Shown here in pieces: positions 913-48,448 of a stretch of DNA of 48,448 nt (the first letter of the stretch is position 1; each line of letters opens with the position of its first letter). Made by a program: the position numbers and the translations under genes. The notes under the pieces are model-generated. The model searched no databases and was not told where the DNA came from. It was given only the letters and a program-made list of their open reading frames with translations. The stretch comes from an uncultured Candidatus Saccharibacteria bacterium (lineage in GTDB: Bacteria > Patescibacteriota > Minisyncoccia > Phycocordibacterales > UBA9973), in the NCBI GenBank assembly GCA_964446475.1, contig CAYUOT010000001.1, positions 1 to 48,448 on the forward strand, written 5' to 3'.

Positions 913-962
913 CAAAATTGTGAGCCCAAAAAGAGTGCACTTCTGCACTCTTTTTCGCTTTT
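913..962. repeat. direct repeat copy 1 (tRNA-Lys trailer plus terminator)
   Basis: 50 nt. The 3' 35 nt (928-962) match 1127-1161 with one mismatch. The 5' 15 nt are diverged (CAAAATTGTGAGCCC versus CAAAAGCGTGAATTT). Confidence 0.8.
928..962 (+). terminator. intrinsic terminator after tRNA-Lys (second copy at 1127-1161)
   Basis: AAAAAGAGTGCA-CTTC-TGCACTCTTTTT hairpin with a T tract. Confidence 0.75.
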
Positions 963-1119
963 GTGAGGCGGAGCGATAATTTTGTCAGCAGACAAAATCG
1001 CGAGCCAGGGTCGTGAAATTTTTCTTTTAACAAAAAGAAAAATATTCCTGACCAAATTAACATCTTTTATAGATAAAAGAAACAAATTTTCAACAGAAAA
1101 TTATGCGTGACCAAAAGCG
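956..1119 (+). repeat. structured intergenic element, long or composite copy A
   Basis: Closing helix CGCTTTTG/CAAAAGCG. 5' end GTGAGGCGGA, then hairpin 973-1001, then GAG. Two AATTTTC-type hairpins follow. The 3' end is ATGCGTGAC. These motifs are shared with 27594-27673 and 21903-21974. Confidence 0.7.
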
Positions 1120-4832: not shown

Positions 4833-5561
4833 ATGAAAAAAATTATATTTTTAGATACAGAGACTACGGGGAATGAACCAAAAAAAGATTTCCTTTGTCA
4901 GTTGGCTTATAAAACAAACGATGAAACTTTTTGCGAACTATACAAACCCCCTGTCCAAATTCCACCTGAAGCTAGTGCTATTACTCATATCTCAAACAAG
5001 ATGGTGGCTGACAAAAACCTATTTAGTGAAAGCAAAGATTATCAAAAAATAAAAAACCTTCTTGAGGATAGTAATTCTGTCATGGTTGCTCATAACAACA
5101 AATTTGATTTTGAAATAATAAAAAAAGAAGGGATAACTCCTGCTAATACAATTTGTACCTTACGAGTTGCAAGATATTTAGACAAAAATAATATAATTCC
5201 TCAATACAAGCTTCAGTTTTTGCGATACTATCTAGACATTGATATAGAAGGAGCCCAAGCACACGATGCTCTTGGCGATGTTCTTGTGCTCGAAAAATTA
5301 TTTGAAAGGTTACTTACTAAAACAAAAGAAGAATACAATTTAAATGATGACGAAGCACTAGAAAAGATGATAGAAATTTCTTCCAAGCCTTCACTTATGA
5401 GTATGTTTAATTTCGGTAAATATAACGGAAAGACAGTGCAAGAAGTTACCAACATTGACCGCGGATATCTCGAATGGATGCTCACCCAAAAAGAACAAAA
5501 TGCAGAAAACGAAGAAGATTGGATATATACTCTTAAATATTATTTAGGAAAACTGATATAA
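4833..5561 (+). CDS. DEDDh 3'-5' exonuclease (DnaQ-like) with a C-terminal small domain
   Basis: Exo motifs FLDTETTG, AHNNKFDF and HDALGDV. The C-terminal FGKYNGKTVQEV..DRGYLEWML motif is also present. Confidence 0.85.
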   Translation: MKKIIFLDTETTGNEPKKDFLCQLAYKTNDETFCELYKPPVQIPPEASAITHISNKMVADKNLFSESKDYQKIKNLLEDSNSVMVAHNNKFDFEIIKKEGITPANTICTLRVARYLDKNNIIPQYKLQFLRYYLDIDIEGAQAHDALGDVLVLEKLFERLLTKTKEEYNLNDDEALEKMIEISSKPSLMSMFNFGKYNGKTVQEVTNIDRGYLEWMLTQKEQNAENEEDWIYTLKYYLGKLI

Positions 5562-15076: not shown

Positions 15077-15147
15077 TGGGAGATCGTCTAACGGTAGGAC
15101 AGAGGCCTTTGAAGCCTTTAATCTAGGTTCGATTCCTAGTCTCCCAG
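15077..15147 (+). tRNA. tRNA-Gln (anticodon TTG)
   Basis: Acceptor TGGGAGA/TCTCCCA, discriminator G, anticodon loop CTTTGAA, T arm CTAGG-TTCGATT-CCTAG. CCA is not encoded. Confidence 0.93.
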
Positions 15148-15154
15148 CAAATTA
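15134..15154. repeat. direct repeat copy 1 (last 14 nt of tRNA-Gln plus 7 nt of trailer)
   Basis: TCCTAGTCTCCCAGCAAATTA recurs at 15320-15340 as TCCTAGTCTCCCAGCCAATTA (20/21). Confidence 0.85.
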
Positions 15155-15187: not shown

Positions 15188-15340
15188 GCTGGGAGAAGCG
15201 AGTAAACTGCTTTACTCGCGTCTAGAAATCGAAGACCTTGAGCTTGGATTTTGAAATGATAATTTCAAAATACGCGAAAGGTGTACTGAACCTGTAAGGT
15301 TCGATAAGTGTACTCACAGTCCTAGTCTCCCAGCCAATTA
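15185..15340 (+). repeat. structured about 150-nt element, divergent relative of the 956/21903/27594 family, ending in a copy of the tRNA-Gln 3' end
   Basis: Closing helix GCTGGGAGA/TCTCCCAGC (15188-15196/15326-15334). Internal hairpins are GCGAGTAAA/TTTACTCGC, ATTTTGAAA(T)/TTTCAAAAT and GAACC/GGTTC. It shares GAGCTTGG with copy C and hairpin-CGCGA-AGG with copy A. Confidence 0.55.
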
Positions 15341-21871: not shown

Positions 21872-21902
21872 CTGTATCCTAAAAGTTTATGGAATAGTCT
21901 TA

Positions 21903-21974
21903 TCAGAGGAGCTTGGGAGGCTGACGAGCCGAGCACGAGGAATTTTCTAACAAGAAAATATCCGTGTCCTCTGA
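21903..21974 (+). repeat. structured intergenic element, short copy C
   Basis: Closing helix TCAGAGGA/TCCTCTGA. The 18-nt core GGAGGCTGACGAGCCGAG (21916-21933) is identical to 27608-27625. Hairpin ATTTTC-TAACAA-GAAAAT lies at 21942-21959. Confidence 0.7.
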
Positions 21975-22004
21975 GAAGAGCTATTTCAGAAACTTTTCTA
22001 TTCT

Positions 22005-25267: not shown

Positions 25268-25358
25268 ATTTTAATTATCTCATTTTATATAATAATTAAC
25301 AATAACTTTTTTAAAATTTGCATAAAAATATGATTTCATGTAATACTTGGGGTTAGAT

Positions 25359-27560
25359 ATGAAATTATTAATTGTTGAGTCACCATCAAAAGCAAAAACA
25401 ATCGAGAAATATTTAGACGGCGCCTACACTGTGCGTGCGTCTGTTGGACATATCCGTGACTTACCAAAATCAAACAAAGATGCAATAGATATAAAAGGAG
25501 GATTTATCCCTCATTATGAAATTTCAAAAGGCAAAGAAAAGGTTGTTCATGATTTGAAAGCTCTCGGAGAAAAAGCAAATGAGATAATGCTTGCAACTGA
25601 CCCGGACCGTGAAGGAGAAGCTATCTCTTGGCATTTGAAAGAACTATTAGATGCAGATAAGAAAATCAAAGCTCCTATTAAAAGAGTAACCTTTCATGAA
25701 ATTACAAAAGAAGCAGTAGAAGAGGCCTTAAAAAATCCTCGTGATATAGATCAGGATTTGGTAAAAGCTCAAGAAGCAAGGCGTGTGCTTGATAGACTTG
25801 TAGGCTATGATCTCTCTGGAATTATCTGGAAGAAAGTTCGCTATGGTTTATCCGCCGGGCGAGTCCAATCCCCCGCTCTACGAATCATAATGGAAAGAGA
25901 AAGAGAAATCCGTGCATTTACACCTCTGCAATACTGGGAACTTTCTGGATTATTTGAAACTAATAAAAAAGATAGAATAAATTTATCTTGCATAGAGGAG
26001 CCTCGAGATGAAAAAGTTGTAAATAAAATACTAGAATTAGGAAGAAAAGAAAAGTGGCTTGTAAAAGATTTGAAAGCGAGTGAACAGAAGAGACAACCTC
26101 GTGCTCCATTCACTACTTCTACTCTTCAACAGACTGCGAGTACTCGTCTAGGATTTTCACCTTCACGTACTATGGGGGTGGCTCAGAAGCTTTATGAAGC
26201 AGGTCACATAACTTACATGCGTACAGATAGCACGAACTTAAGTATAGTTGCTCAGAATCAAATACTCGCTTTGGTAGAAAAGAAATATGGAAAAGAATAT
26301 GTACAATCACATGTATATAAAGCAAAATCTAAAAATGCTCAAGAAGCCCACGAAGCGATAAGGCCAACACATATAGAACAAACTCATGCGGGAATGAATG
26401 ATGAACAAAAAAATCTTTATCAACTTATTTGGGAAAGAGTTGTTTCTTCTCAAATGGCTGATGCTAAACTTCTTAAAACAAAAATAACTGCAAATATAGA
26501 GAAAGGAGAAATTCCAGACTTTACTGCCAATGGCTCACGAGTGTTATTTCCTGGTTGGCTTGTATGTGACACAGGAGCTAGAGGAGAAGATATAGAGCTT
26601 CCTGAAGTAAAAATTGGTGATGATCTTAAACTTATAGAATTAGAAAGCAAAGAAAAATTTACTGAGCCTCCAAACCGCTACACAGAAGCAGGACTTATAA
26701 AAGAGCTTGAGTCCCGAGACATCGGTCGCCCTTCTACTTATGCATCCATAATGAAAACTATTGAGGATAGGGGTTATGTCCGCAAAGATGGCAAAACCCT
26801 TTTCCCTACTGATACTGGAGATGTTGTTTCTTCATTTCTTGAAAATAATCTAGGAAATTATATAAGTGACACTTTTACGGCAGAAATGGAAGATGAGCTC
26901 GATGACATCTCAAATGGGAAAAGAGAATATTCAAAAACATTAAATGATTTTTATATTCCGTTCCAAAAAGAAATAAAAGAGAAAGACAAACTTGCAAAAG
27001 CTACAAATATGGGAGAAGCACCTAGAGATATAACATGTCCTAAATGTGATTCAAGTATGATAGTAAAACTCTCAAAAGGTGGTAAGTTTTATTCATGTAG
27101 TAAATATCCAGACTGCGAGGGAGCAAGAACAATAGAGGGTAAAGAACTTGAAGGACCAAAAGAAACTGGAGAAATATGCCCTGCTTGTGGAGATAAAAAG
27201 GGCAAAAACGGAGGAGGTAAACTTGTAATCCGAGAAGGAAGATTTGGGAGTTTTATTTCTTGCTCAAGATACCCAAAATGTAAATTTATTAAACAAGACG
27301 AAGAAGAACTAAAAAAGAAAATGACAGATATCACATGTCCGACATGTGGAAAAGGTAAAATGATGGAACGCAGGGGGCGTTTTGGAATATTTTATTCATG
27401 TAGCAATTACCCAGATTGTAAAAACGCCATAAAAGCAAAACCAACAGGAAATATTTGTGAAATGTGTCGAGCTCTTATGATGAATGGCACAAAAACAATA
27501 CCAGAGAGATGTAGTAATAATAAATGCCCAAATCATAGACCAGATAAATTAAAGAAGTAA
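25359..27560 (+). CDS. topA: DNA topoisomerase I with four C-terminal Zn-ribbon (C4) repeats
   Basis: MKLLIVESPSKAK TOPRIM, the active-site region ITYMRTDS, and four CPxC...CxxC modules. The track start (TTG 25347) is probably four codons too early. Confidence 0.95.
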   Translation: MKLLIVESPSKAKTIEKYLDGAYTVRASVGHIRDLPKSNKDAIDIKGGFIPHYEISKGKEKVVHDLKALGEKANEIMLATDPDREGEAISWHLKELLDADKKIKAPIKRVTFHEITKEAVEEALKNPRDIDQDLVKAQEARRVLDRLVGYDLSGIIWKKVRYGLSAGRVQSPALRIIMEREREIRAFTPLQYWELSGLFETNKKDRINLSCIEEPRDEKVVNKILELGRKEKWLVKDLKASEQKRQPRAPFTTSTLQQTASTRLGFSPSRTMGVAQKLYEAGHITYMRTDSTNLSIVAQNQILALVEKKYGKEYVQSHVYKAKSKNAQEAHEAIRPTHIEQTHAGMNDEQKNLYQLIWERVVSSQMADAKLLKTKITANIEKGEIPDFTANGSRVLFPGWLVCDTGARGEDIELPEVKIGDDLKLIELESKEKFTEPPNRYTEAGLIKELESRDIGRPSTYASIMKTIEDRGYVRKDGKTLFPTDTGDVVSSFLENNLGNYISDTFTAEMEDELDDISNGKREYSKTLNDFYIPFQKEIKEKDKLAKATNMGEAPRDITCPKCDSSMIVKLSKGGKFYSCSKYPDCEGARTIEGKELEGPKETGEICPACGDKKGKNGGGKLVIREGRFGSFISCSRYPKCKFIKQDEEELKKKMTDITCPTCGKGKMMERRGRFGIFYSCSNYPDCKNAIKAKPTGNICEMCRALMMNGTKTIPERCSNNKCPNHRPDKLKK

Positions 27561-27606
27561 GATATAAAAAGAACTCTAAGGATAGAGTTCTTTTGTTTTT
27601 GTGAGA
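27490..27606. repeat. direct repeat copy 1: last 71 nt of the topA CDS, terminator and GTGAGA
   Basis: 117 nt, identical to 27666-27782 except G27561 versus A27737. Period 176 nt. Confidence 0.95.
27566..27600 (+). terminator. topA intrinsic terminator (second copy at 27742-27776)
   Basis: AGAACTCT-AAGGAT-AGAGTTCT hairpin followed by TTTTGTTTTT. Confidence 0.8.
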
Positions 27607-27673
27607 CGGAGGCTGACGAGCCGAGTCGGGGTCGCACAAATTTTCAGCAGAAAATTATGTGTGACCAAAAACA
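27594..27673 (+). repeat. structured intergenic element, short copy B
   Basis: Closing helix TGTTTTTG/CAAAAACA. Order: GTGAGACGGA, hairpin GGCT-GACG-AGCC, GAG, helix GTCGCAC/GTGTGAC bracketing hairpin AATTTTC-AGCA-GAAAATT. The 3' end is ATGTGTGAC. Confidence 0.75.
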
Positions 27674-27782
27674 ATACCAGAGAGATGTAGTAATAATAAA
27701 TGCCCAAATCATAGACCAGATAAATTAAAGAAGTAAAATATAAAAAGAACTCTAAGGATAGAGTTCTTTTGTTTTTGTGAGA
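27666..27782. repeat. direct repeat copy 2 (orphan topA 3' fragment plus second terminator)
   Basis: See 27490-27606. Confidence 0.95.
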
Positions 27783-39970: not shown

Positions 39971-40006
39971 TTTCTAGCAAAAAATAAAATTTTTTGCTAG
40001 GATATG

Positions 40007-40038
40007 TTAATATAAAATAAGGCGTGGTAGCCAAGTGG
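40007..40038. repeat. direct repeat copy 1: 14 nt of leader plus the first 18 nt of tRNA-Cys
   Basis: TTAATATAAAATAAGGCGTGGTAGCCAAGTGG is identical to 40116-40147. Confidence 0.9.
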
Positions 40039-40129
40039 CATGAGCGAAGCGAAAATGAATAAGACAGAGAAAGATCTCTGCTGTAAATAAAATAAAAAGA
40101 TATCGATAGGAAAAATTAATATAAAATAA

Positions 40130-40201
40130 GGCGTGGTAGCCAAGTGGTAAGGCAGAGATCTGCAAAATCTCCATACGGCGGTTCAATTCCGCCCCACGCC
40201 T
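40130..40201 (+). tRNA. tRNA-Cys (anticodon GCA)
   Basis: Acceptor GGCGTGG/CCACGCC, discriminator T, anticodon loop CTGCAAA, T arm GGCGG-TTCAATT-CCGCC. Confidence 0.93.
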
Positions 40202-40202
40202 C

Positions 40203-48367: not shown

Positions 48368-48448
48368 TTAAATAGCTGGTTCTACTGGAGCTACTGGTTC
48401 TACTGGAGCTACTGGTTCTACTGGAGCTACTGGTTCTACTGGAGCTAC
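48368..48448 (-). CDS. C-terminal end of a protein carrying (VAPVEP)n repeats (partial, runs off the right edge)
   Basis: Open to the window edge on the minus strand: (VAPVEP)x4-A-I-stop, with TAA at 48370-48368. Followed by a terminator hairpin. Confidence 0.45.
   Translation of the reverse strand, partial: VAPVEPVAPVEPVAPVEPVAPVEPAI
48377..48448. repeat. perfect 18-bp tandem repeat, four full units, truncated by the window edge
   Basis: TGGTTCTACTGGAGCTAC x4, with an internal 9-bp sub-period (TGGTTCTAC / TGGAGCTAC). Confidence 0.95.

Follow-up and report, generated by a model that had tools for sequence, protein, structure and literature searches.

Three loci in the 48,448-nt stretch of DNA analysed here (the window) are copies of a structured RNA module of about 64 nt that is found across Parcubacteria/Paceibacteria and represents a previously uncatalogued family, widespread in the Parcubacteria (CPR). 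One arm of the module, P2, is by its sequence a miniature of the helix 77/78 (H77/H78) junction of 23S rRNA, that is, of the L1 stalk. Under the explanation that we prefer, tentatively and at somewhat short of an even chance, the three copies, denoted A, B and C, would be an RNA module derived from an L1 operator and spread by non-autonomous insertion that duplicates the flanks. The copies and their parts are:

27594-27673, + strand: interval of the original prediction, copy A with its closing helix P1
27604-27667, + strand: copy A of the module (covariance model R1, 91 bits, E=6e-22; fold z=-4.4)
27605-27607/27625-27627: outer stem of P2 in copy A, followed by the internal loop GGA/GA and the hairpin 27611-27614/27619-27622 with the loop GACG
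27630-27666: P3 in copy A, an A/U-rich 16-bp hairpin with the loop AGCA and a bulged A at 27657
21915-21970, + strand: copy B of the module (covariance model R1, 48.5 bits, E=8e-11)
956-1119, + strand: copy C, matched by covariance model R1 at 990-1054 (28.4 bits) and 1083-1105 (20.5 bits); repeat family D18
967-1006: P2 in copy C, with GGC/GCC in place of GAC/GUC and a longer hairpin, 973-1001
~1009-1053: P3-like hairpin in copy C
1066-1084: extra hairpin in copy C
1082-1111: second P3 half in copy C

The covariance model was built from 73 homologues in other genomes and then run on the window, where A, B and C, all on the + strand, were the only convincing matches; the match of all three loci to one model confirms the original prediction that they are copies of one element. 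The 18-mer reported there, GGAGGCTGACGAGCCGAG, is exact at 21916-21933 and 27608-27625 (0 matches in 100 shuffles), and the conserved AUUUUC hairpin is present within a 3' module, AATTTTC-NNNN-GAAAATTATGYGTGACC, at 1085-1112 and 27639-27666 (none in shuffles). By sequence reading, copy B has the same 18-nt core as copy A and a shorter P3; the second P3 half of copy C is 94% identical to copy A. Overall, the three copies are quite diverged from one another within this one genome. Fold stability at the window loci exceeds that of shuffled sequence (z from -3.1 to -6.2).

The exact 18-mer occurs at more than 117 genome loci (designated here by L numbers), nearly all of them in Patescibacteria and often several per MAG, and the covariance model recovers 152 copies in 100 loci, some with an altered core sequence. 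Among 114 distinct copies, 96.2% of the cells pair, compensatory changes are found at 21 of the 23 base pairs, all 4 base pairs in the core hairpin covary, and a covariation score of 0.556 compares with 0.188 obtained from shuffles and a maximum of 0.12 from slid controls; the underlying alignment was fitted to the model and leans towards structure, and an independent MAFFT alignment gave similar results. The prediction of a multi-copy, structured element is thus upheld, with many further copies outside the window and compensatory changes that bear out selection for pairing. The claim that it fits no known family stands as well: at the gathering threshold, Rfam 15 detected only tRNAs and one SSU rRNA in the window and 20 loci, a permissive Rfam scan of copy A gave chance-level matches only (E above 0.2), and no match emerged when the literature was searched for the sequence and for tRNA-linked repeats of CPR. 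The CPR/Patescibacteria make up a large part of bacterial diversity and their non-coding RNA repertoire is almost unknown; here, an abundant, strongly covarying RNA family is missing both from Rfam and from the literature searched.

The element folds into a three-way junction in which unpaired purines are conserved, and it also occurs in a circularly permuted topology. In P2, the outer stem and the hairpin covary and the GGA/GA loop is constant, and the 18-nt core is unchanged across many genera. A conserved G-U pair is present in 83 of 109 copies (A-U in 22), and 46 of the 48 copies located within 260 nt of a tRNA or tmRNA gene lie on the strand of the tRNA; the wobble pair and this co-orientation together point to an element that is read as RNA on the + strand.

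The invariant part of P2, GGAGGCU/AGCCGA (7+6 nt), is identical to E. coli 23S rRNA around 2124-2130 and 2158-2163, at the H77/H78 junction, to which ribosomal protein L1 binds and which L1 operators on rplK/rplA mRNAs imitate: GGUGG-GA-GGCU...AGCC-GA-CCUUGAAAUA-CCACC in E. coli corresponds to C-G-GA-GGCU-GACG-AGCC-GA-G in the core. On a phage contig (L001), the 18-mer hairpin adjoins a longer copy of the L1 stalk; a 23S gene was considered for this contig and rejected, as it has only a short L1-stalk-like segment. The element lies directly at the stop codon or 3' end of rplK in 9 loci and, additionally, in L138, and these are the oldest-looking copies. Neither the H77/H78 likeness nor the rplK-end copies figured in the original prediction.

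In phyla with the order rplK-operator-rplA, L1 operators lie at the 3' end of rplK (PMC3616713). The same scan that yielded the module detected in other bacteria the canonical operator, GUGGGAG-hairpin-ACCAC, between rplK and rplA, with 4-7 nt ahead of the ACCAC at the individual sites (L132, L139, L150, L159, L172 and L199). L1 sites are characterized by a stem and an internal loop with a G-A pair and an unpaired purine (PMC3616713). The module has such a stem and loop, with conserved flanking pairs as in the rRNA, the 5' side of the loop consisting of a 1-nt bulge plus GA and the 3' side of GA only. Like the L1 operator, then, it combines a short stem, a purine internal loop with a G-A pair and an unpaired purine, and a hairpin beyond. 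It differs from the operator in that it has neither the GUGG/CCAC stem nor the 4-12 nt 3' junction strand of canonical sites, its own stem being variable and 3 bp long; in that the conserved 16-bp hairpin P3 is always added; and in that a genome has many copies of it, located at tRNAs, tmRNAs, terminators and elsewhere. Window copies A, B and C and the tRNA-linked majority lie neither in an rplK leader nor in an rplK-rplA spacer. Furthermore, rplA never follows rplK in the Parcubacteria-like loci examined, so the module, unlike the operator, has no rplA downstream, and a large group of Parcubacteria (OD1-L1) is reported to be without L1 (PMC5220378; 10.1101/2022.01.07.475337). Because of these last two observations, the natural ligand may be absent. 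The invariant arm copies the L1-stalk junction in a group for which the loss of L1 and, in places, of helix 78 has been reported, which makes the fate of ribosomal protein operators after the loss of their protein directly testable.

In the window, these flanking features were identified:

27490-27606, + strand: first flanking direct repeat of copy A, 117 nt, 99% identity, spacing 176, family D2 (repeat search)
27666-27782, + strand: second flanking direct repeat of copy A, with gene end and terminator duplicated at a displaced position
21890-21987, + strand: extended imperfect closing stem of copy B, in which GGAATAGTCTTATCAGAGGAGC pairs with GTCCTCTGAGAAGAGCTATTTC (sequence reading and fold)
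913-962, + strand: first flanking direct repeat of copy C, 50 nt, 86% identity, spacing 199, family D12
1112-1161, + strand: second flanking direct repeat of copy C, a second terminator copy

The first repeat of copy A comprises the final 71 nt of a topoisomerase-like ORF with a Zn-finger C-terminus (25347-27560), the terminator hairpin 27569-27593, and TGTTTTTGTGAGA; the two repeats differ at one base, with A at 27737 in the second and G at 27561 in the first. One strand of helix P1 of copy A is TGTTTTTG (27594-27601), the U-tract that follows the upstream gene's terminator; the other is CAAAAACA (27666-27673), formed by the opening bases of the second repeat. At copy C, the first repeat consists of trailer and terminator, starting at the final base of tRNA-Lys (840-913), and the closing helix pairs CAAAAGCG, the leading 8 nt of the second repeat, with CGCTTTTG at 956-963. 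In both cases, the closing helix joins two successive copies of a long host direct repeat, the end of the first pairing with the start of the second. Long-stem copies similar to copy B are also found at L007, L012, L014, L046, L060 and L067. In exact-protein look-ups aimed at empty sites for the window's own copies, contigs of the same organism were short ones only, breaking at the repeats or copies, and one Logan contig begins inside the 27666-27782 repeat.

The original prediction held that every copy is enclosed by a helix and that these helices pair despite their different sequences. The helices are exact at 956-963/1112-1119, 27594-27601/27666-27673, 21903-21910/21967-21974 and 15188-15196/15326-15334, so the first claim is accurate for the window; family-wide, it fails, with only about 30 of 110 copies closed by P1 and about 69 of 110 preceded instead by a local hairpin, X. 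The differing helices do not count as covariation, because these stems are made locally from duplicated or inverted host flanks, such as terminator U-tracts, tRNA 3' ends and gene ends. An assembly artefact is an unlikely source of this R-U-R architecture, given that the same layout is seen in dozens of independent assemblies. The template and variable repeats of a DGR were also considered for copy A and rejected: the G/A difference does not fall within the ORF, the vicinity has no reverse transcriptase, and copy C's differences are not A-specific.

Across the family, direct repeats of at least 12 nt flank 29 of 94 copies compared with 1 of 90 controls, and inverted flanks of at least 9 nt were detected for 17 copies and 1 control; the direct repeats span 12-117 nt. 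For about 42% of the copies, a tRNA or tmRNA gene lies within 260 nt, and the element is linked, tightly and in the same orientation, to tRNA, tmRNA, rRNA-spacer and rplK loci. At tRNA, tmRNA and rplK loci, the architecture can be written R1-spacer-Rbar-module-R2, where R1 and R2 are the direct repeats and Rbar the inverted copy. The 3' portion of a tRNA is repeated directly on both sides of the insert, for example, CAAGTCTCCTCCCCAGCACA that is common to L037, L052 and L084, and the same pattern is seen at L064, L044 and L015; such repeats run from the T-loop to the tRNA 3' end plus 2-8 nt. Other inserts are located within partial tRNA copies, at the D-arm/position 26, in the D-loop or in the T-loop, and these interrupted copies lack the 3' half and adjoin an intact tRNA. 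Empty and filled sites coexist: L028 and L138 have the element at the rplK 3' end, which in L124-L128 is empty. Tandem units are found in L076, and both tandem and nested arrays occur. The copy at the tRNA-Leu locus is conserved across genera (L037, L052, L084), as are rplK copies. Clustering of the ORFs in about 110 flanks of 8 kb produced only housekeeping families (UvrA, L11, NusG, LepA and others), with no recurrent transposase, reverse transcriptase or integrase. Two further candidates were discarded: PBS-like priming by mature tRNA, since the inverted copies match the gene including its non-CCA trailer rather than the CCA-tailed tRNA (L112, element D of the window), and insertion into RNase P RNA or tmRNA at loci of the L006/L039 type, for which Rfam and ARAGORN gave no support.

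Under the preferred explanation, the module would go back to the L1 operator that lies where rplK ends, and would have spread by a non-autonomous insertion or duplication process. Its site would be just 3' of a hairpin (a terminator, a gene end, or the 3' end of a tRNA or tmRNA), and it would be bracketed by 12-117 nt of neighbouring host sequence, copied directly and in many cases in inverted orientation as well, a duplication that would leave the neighbouring gene intact. The copies would then be transcribed with, or beside, genes of the translation apparatus. The third helix is provided either by a local upstream hairpin or by a closing helix built from the flanks. The module itself is most likely a protein-binding RNA domain, recognized by L1 or by another reader of the H77/H78 junction. 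Given the divergence of the copies within a genome and the conservation of loci across genera, long-term retention fits better than recent transposition. No mechanism is known by which a target would be duplicated over 12-117 nt and its flank also be copied in inverted orientation. The linkage to translation loci suggests that either the genes of the translation apparatus are subject to a new layer of control or the element is a flank-copying mobile element of a new kind.

A rival explanation is a purely selfish repeat, in which the fold would serve the element's own propagation, through an RNA intermediate and a reverse transcriptase acting in trans or through a top-strand ssDNA hairpin, with no role for the host and with the L1-stalk likeness a relic or a coincidence. 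Dispersal in many copies, empty sites, flank duplications far in excess of the controls, and tandem and nested arrays all agree with this, as do the 99% identity of the copy A repeats, which implies a recent event, and the breaking of same-organism contigs at the copies. However, the surroundings of the copies have no recurrent reverse transcriptase or transposase, the invariance of the core across many genera implies a conserved partner, the rplK and specific-tRNA copies persist across genera, and copies within a genome have diverged with compensatory changes rather than remaining near-identical as after a burst. On balance, we consider a purely selfish repeat unlikely, if with a real chance of being correct.

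A second rival is a programmable cis-acting RNA switch, in which Rbar would pair either with the 3' end of the neighbour (R1, that is, the tRNA acceptor/T arm or the rplK stop region) or with the decoy R2, the junction, with or without a protein, would decide between the two, and tRNA maturation or rplK expression would be coupled to ribosome status. The recurrence of the same architecture at tRNA, tmRNA and rplK, the prediction of both pairings family-wide (hairpin X in 69 copies, P1 in 30), the co-orientation with the neighbouring gene and a sensor arm resembling a ribosomal protein operator are what such a switch would show. Yet many copies follow an intrinsic terminator, which makes co-transcription with the neighbour uncertain; R2 has decayed and the pairing is lost at several rplK loci, such as L073; and copy B is antisense to both of its neighbours. 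We regard the switch as doubtful. Similarly limited credence is due to a broader scenario, in which a miniature L1 stalk, seated in a three-way junction whose third helix consists of one inverted and one direct copy of the neighbour's 3' end, would be the sensor of a programmable cis device that targets each copy to the adjacent tRNA, tmRNA or rplK transcript and masks, in alternation, this transcript or a decoy, and/or the element would spread by an undescribed process that copies flanks both ways (a candidate being snap-back extension of terminated transcripts with template switching), all in a lineage without L1.

The remaining explanations are less likely. The copies might be scars of tiny integrative elements, left when integration, whether site-specific or homologous, into the 3' end of a tRNA, a tmRNA or another gene produced attL/attR-like repeats, the module being cargo or an arm of a degraded island or phage. 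Repeats extending from the T-loop to the tRNA 3' end plus 2-8 nt resemble classical tRNA att sites, tmRNA genes are targeted too and the host gene stays intact, as with known tRNA/tmRNA integrative elements; moreover, a phage contig carries the 18-mer, and the 5'-type structure P-x1-U-x2-S-tRNA is that expected from a single crossover with a small circle. Unlike those elements, the inserts are just 60-250 nt long with no integrase nearby, an extra inverted tRNA end is left unexplained, and non-tRNA sites are used, the terminator U-tracts of A and C and the long A/T palindromes of the B type not being att-like; the strong selection on RNA structure also argues against scars, which we deem improbable.

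An ssDNA hairpin substrate for a recombinase or transposase (attC-, REP/RAYT- or IS200/IS605-like), read in DNA rather than RNA, would account for a structure that is kept while the stem sequence varies, and the strand asymmetry also fits a single-stranded top strand with G-T wobble tolerated. It is very improbable in view of a tandem G-A internal loop and conserved tetraloops typical of RNA tertiary motifs, a core equal to an rRNA junction, an orientation that tracks the transcription of neighbouring tRNAs, and the lack of a recurrent Y1/HUH transposase or integron integrase nearby. Hardly any likelihood attaches, either, to a small self-cleaving ribozyme or intron-like insert that leaves host RNAs (tRNA D-loop or T-loop, mRNA ends): the three-way junction with unpaired purines, the permuted topology and the insertions inside partial tRNA copies are in its favour, but no Rfam ribozyme or intron family matched, the truncated tRNA copies stand beside an intact tRNA so that splicing is unnecessary, group I and II introns are far larger than the element, and no conserved cleavage-site context was found. 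Specifically, a group I, group II or tRNA intron, which would interrupt an otherwise complete gene and have a catalytic core or a BHB motif, was rejected on the incomplete tRNA copies, the 64-nt size and the lack of a family match, and hammerhead, twister, pistol and hairpin ribozymes because their consensus features do not fit the sequence. A kink-turn has a 3-nt bulge followed by tandem sheared G-A pairs between the C stem and the NC stem; in P2, tandem GA/GA pairs are possible, but the bulge is a single G, so a canonical kink-turn was rejected too.

Several known systems share parts of this picture. With REP/BIME, ERIC, Correia/NEMIS, RUP, Rickettsia palindromic elements and MITEs, the module has in common that it is short, non-coding, multi-copy, rich in stable hairpins, often co-transcribed at gene ends, and present or absent among relatives. 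In contrast to MITEs and IS-derived repeats, it has no family-wide terminal inverted repeats, no target duplication of fixed length (12-117 nt here) and no partner transposase family in the approximately 110 8-kb flanks; its flanking stems are copied from each local target, both direct and inverted, and it shows extensive compensatory covariation around an invariant rRNA-like core. GOLLD and ROOL are tRNA-adjacent ornate RNAs. The association with tRNA genes and the inserts at D-arm and T-loop positions are shared with these and with archaeal mobile tRNA introns, whose transposition is described in Thermoproteales (PMC10714607); unlike the introns, the module interrupts tRNA copies that are truncated pseudo-copies, and unlike GOLLD and ROOL, it is much smaller and matches neither in Rfam. 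TIGR-Tas systems, tandem dual-spacer arrays beside a Nop-domain Tas gene in CPR and phages (PMC12045711), were rejected given that the copies are dispersed singly, with no array, Tas gene or recurrent adjacent protein family.

Two more loci in the window are relevant to the wider class:

15188-15337, + strand: element D (fold z=-6.2; no match to covariance model R1)
39980-40088, + strand: upstream duplicate of tRNA-Cys, a partial copy with the promoter and the first 18 nt of the tRNA; family D8

Element D was originally proposed to be a more divergent copy of the same module, which is not the case, there being no match to the covariance model; it is a member of the same wider class of tRNA-flanking modular elements, without this module. 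Its layout is tRNA-Gln (15077-15148), a terminator, an inverted tRNA 3' end, the hairpin GCGAGUAAACUGCUUUACUCGC, a module M2 that consists of GACCUUGA-hairpin-GAAAGGUGUAC, the hairpin GUGUACUCAC, and a direct tRNA 3' end, CCTAGTCTCCCAGC, which follows the same tRNA 3'-end repeat pattern as the loci described above. The modules of D are common to L038, L040, L056, L064, L075 and L115 and are also present after rplK in L131 and L175. In practice, the repeats of the module family break assemblies and give rise to pseudo-tRNA fragments and duplicated gene ends that pipelines will misannotate. At the second locus, the partial copy of tRNA-Cys is followed by an insert with the family-associated motif UGAGCGAAGCGAA and a hairpin, and the intact tRNA-Cys is located at 40130-40202; the same motif is seen again in P3 variants of the family.

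Direct reading of the four loci bore out all coordinates of the original prediction, which had described a recurrent structured intergenic element with a shared 18-mer, an AUUUUC hairpin and closing helices that always pair. GGAGGCTGACGAGCCGAG, the 18-mer, occurs without mismatch at 21916 and 27608 (chance expectation, none), the 3' module AATTTTC-N4-GAAAATTATGYGTGACC is present at 1085 and 27639, the closing helices are exact in 4 of the 4 loci, and each copy folds far more stably than shuffled sequence (z -3.1 to -6.2). Three of the loci are members of a ~64-nt RNA module:

27604-27667, plus strand: module copy A
27490-27606 and 27666-27782: 117-nt direct repeats flanking copy A, 99% identical (family D2)
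25347-27560: ORF upstream of copy A, with a Zn-finger C-terminus
21915-21970, plus strand: module copy B
956-1119, plus strand: module copy C
913-962 and 1112-1161: 50-nt repeats flanking copy C, 86% identical (family D12)

Each 117-nt repeat comprises the final 71 nt of the ORF upstream, its intrinsic terminator and TGTTTTTGTGAGA, so that the 8-bp closing helix of copy A is formed by the terminal U-tract of repeat 1 and the initial 8 nt of repeat 2. The repeats around copy C start at the last base of tRNA-Lys and include its terminator; the 133-nt spacer that contains copy B is flanked by two minus-strand genes, of which one is Dus, and the copy is enclosed by an imperfect stem of ~20 bp. Two Logan assemblies of the same organism end within these elements: one (L120) starts at window 27753, inside the downstream repeat of copy A, and the other (L122) ends near 21937, inside copy B. 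The assemblies are independent; the elements fragment short-read assemblies.

A scan for the exact 18-mer with one genome per species produced, among the matches listed, >117 stretches, nearly all from Patescibacteria (Paceibacterota, Nomura- and Zambryskibacteria, and MAGs labelled Saccharibacteria) and commonly with several copies per MAG; the few matches outside CPR, in genomes of high GC content, resemble chance hits. In an alignment of 73 copies built without structural guidance, 96.9% of the cells are paired, 16 of the 23 pairs show compensatory change, and the covariation score is 0.47 (shuffles, 0.175; slid controls, no higher than 0.114). The covariance model derived from this alignment recovered 152 copies among 100 loci and, in the window, copies A, B and C only. 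Many of the matches differ in the core hairpin (GGCA/UGCC, GCGC/GCGC, GACU/AGUC, GCAC/GUGC, AGAC/GUCU), always retaining C-GGA...GA-G and usually the GACG loop. Covariation is seen in 21 of 23 pairs, including 4 of 4 in the core hairpin, across 114 distinct copies, in an alignment that was fitted with the model and is therefore biased towards structure. Compensatory changes in the module pairs and the existence of further copies support the original reading of a structured, recurrent element. The functional strand is placed on plus by two results: one pair is G-U in 83 copies and A-U in 22, and, of the 48 copies lying no more than 260 nt from a tRNA or tmRNA gene, 46 are co-oriented with it. 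In one locus (L099, 5597-6109), four module-like matches are located in the interval from the 16S rRNA gene to tRNA-Ile and shortly past tRNA-Ile; therefore, the family also occupies the rRNA operon spacer.

The E. coli 23S gene, read directly, contains GGUGG-GA-GGCUUUG...GGAGCC-GA-CCUUGAAAUA-CCACC, which spans helix 77, the GA junction and the helix 78 base in the L1 stalk. The module core, C-G-GA-GGCU-GACG-AGCC-GA-G, agrees with the H77/H78 junction in sequence and structure and is the same junction with the same first four H78 pairs, capped by a tetraloop. Unlike the canonical L1 operator, the core has neither the GUGG/CCAC stem nor the long junction strand and, for this reason, does not qualify as that operator. 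In a viral locus, the 18-mer hairpin lies immediately 5' of a segment sharing 96% identity over 28 nt with E. coli 23S rRNA:

IMGVR_UViG_3300025122_000042, 4950-5150, minus strand: phage contig with an L1-stalk-like RNA

This RNA, which is longer than the 18-mer hairpin fused to it and carries the 3' strand AGCCGACAGUGAAAUACCACCC, directly follows genes for a P-loop kinase and a metallophosphoesterase, is surrounded by six tRNA genes, and may be a phage-borne L1-stalk mimic. Taken together, the data show that the module is a strand-specific RNA with structure under selection, its invariant arm being a miniature L1-stalk junction.

A metagenome scan with an L11 alignment yielded 80 loci; in ordinary bacteria, rplK is followed by the canonical operator GUGGGAG-hairpin-ACCAC and then rplA, the arrangement that Fu et al. 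(PMC3616713) describe. The module is found at the rplK stop codon in nine genome loci, laid out as follows:

last L11 codons (5' arm of a hairpin); inverted copy (3' arm); module; direct copy of these L11 codons, decayed

No rplA follows rplK in the Parcubacteria-like loci L020, L028, L033, L051, L073, L075, L091, L092, L097, L124-L131, L138 and L175. In its place stands a terminator alone, the module, a second module (M2), or both modules: L124-L128, with the terminator only, are empty sites, L138 carries the module, and L131 and L175 carry M2. The rplA-less rplK loci fit the loss of L1 reported for OD1-L1, a large Parcubacteria group (PMC5220378); H78 is reported to be missing in some CPR (10.1101/2022.01.07.475337).

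Across contexts, the recurrent order is R1, spacer, Rbar, module, R2, where R1 is host sequence and Rbar and R2 are its inverted and direct copies. R1 can be the final rplK codons, the end of a protein gene with its terminator, or a tRNA or tmRNA 3' end that starts near C56 of the T-loop and extends 2-8 nt beyond the gene. Pairing of Rbar with R1 gives a hairpin just upstream of the module, and pairing with R2 gives the closing helix; minimum-free-energy folding of 110 copies predicts the former in 69 and the latter in 30. Direct flanking repeats of at least 12 nt are present in 29 of 94 copies and in 1 of 90 shifted controls; for inverted flanks of at least 9 nt, the counts are 17 copies and 1 control. 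In a 5' variant (L035, L066, L090, L095, and L076 with three tandem units), the module lies within a partial tRNA copy, made from the first 24-45 nt, that precedes the intact tRNA. The window contains a module-less example:

39980-40088: partial tRNA-Cys duplicate with insert
40130-40202: intact tRNA-Cys

Here, a duplicate of the tRNA-Cys promoter and of the first 18 nt of the tRNA lies 109 nt upstream of the intact gene (83% identity), and the partial copy runs into an insert with the motif UGAGCGAAGCGAA, also present within variants of P3, the A/U-rich module hairpin, in L035, L077 and L082.

The fourth locus was predicted to be a divergent relative; its coordinates and closing helix are exact, and it does not match the covariance model:

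15077-15148: tRNA-Gln, followed by a terminator
15188-15337: element D, in the order inverted tRNA 3' end, conserved hairpin GCGAGUAAACUGCUUUACUCGC, M2, small hairpin GUGUACUCAC, direct tRNA 3' end

The closing helix of D thus consists of inverted and direct copies of tRNA-Gln's own 3' end, the small hairpin sitting within the T-loop copy. M2, GACCUUGA-hairpin-GAAAGGUGUAC, forms the body of D and of L075; it begins with GACCUUGA, and its first 8 nt are identical to the 3' strand at the H77/H78 junction in 23S rRNA. The modules of D recur 3' of a tmRNA gene (L056) and of rplK (L075, L131, L175).

The module fails the class tests for a MITE, a known Rfam family, a k-turn, an intron and a TIGR array; Rfam 15 has no description of it, and none was found in the searchable literature. 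We rate it as resembling in kind an r-protein operator mimic and an interspersed structured repeat; we know of no precedent for the flank-copying architecture.

The module occurs once per genome behind rplK, where operators classically lie, and much more often at tRNA, tmRNA, rRNA-spacer and terminator sites, where insertion duplicates the adjoining sequence, so that the neighbor remains intact. We tentatively favor, with somewhat less than even confidence, an RNA domain that binds protein, derives from an operator and has spread by a non-autonomous process in which flanks are copied; its ligand, its effect on neighbors and its copying mechanism would be putative parts of this reading. A purely selfish repeat and a programmable switch among Rbar, R1 and R2 are compatible with this reading and overlap it rather than excluding it. 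Scars of tiny integrative elements would account for the flanking repeats, which match the repeat pattern of tRNA att sites; integrase is absent, and the 8-kb flanks contain housekeeping genes and no recurrent transposase, reverse transcriptase or integrase. A hairpin for ssDNA recombination would share the pairing and tolerate the wobble pair, and the shared orientation with neighboring tRNAs counts against it. The last rival is a ribozyme or intron; the intron test failed.

At the window end (48376-48447), at least 8 units of a 9-nt tandem repeat, CTGGTTCTA/CTGGAGCTA, continue past the boundary and may encode a Gly/Ser/Thr/Ala-rich repeat protein.
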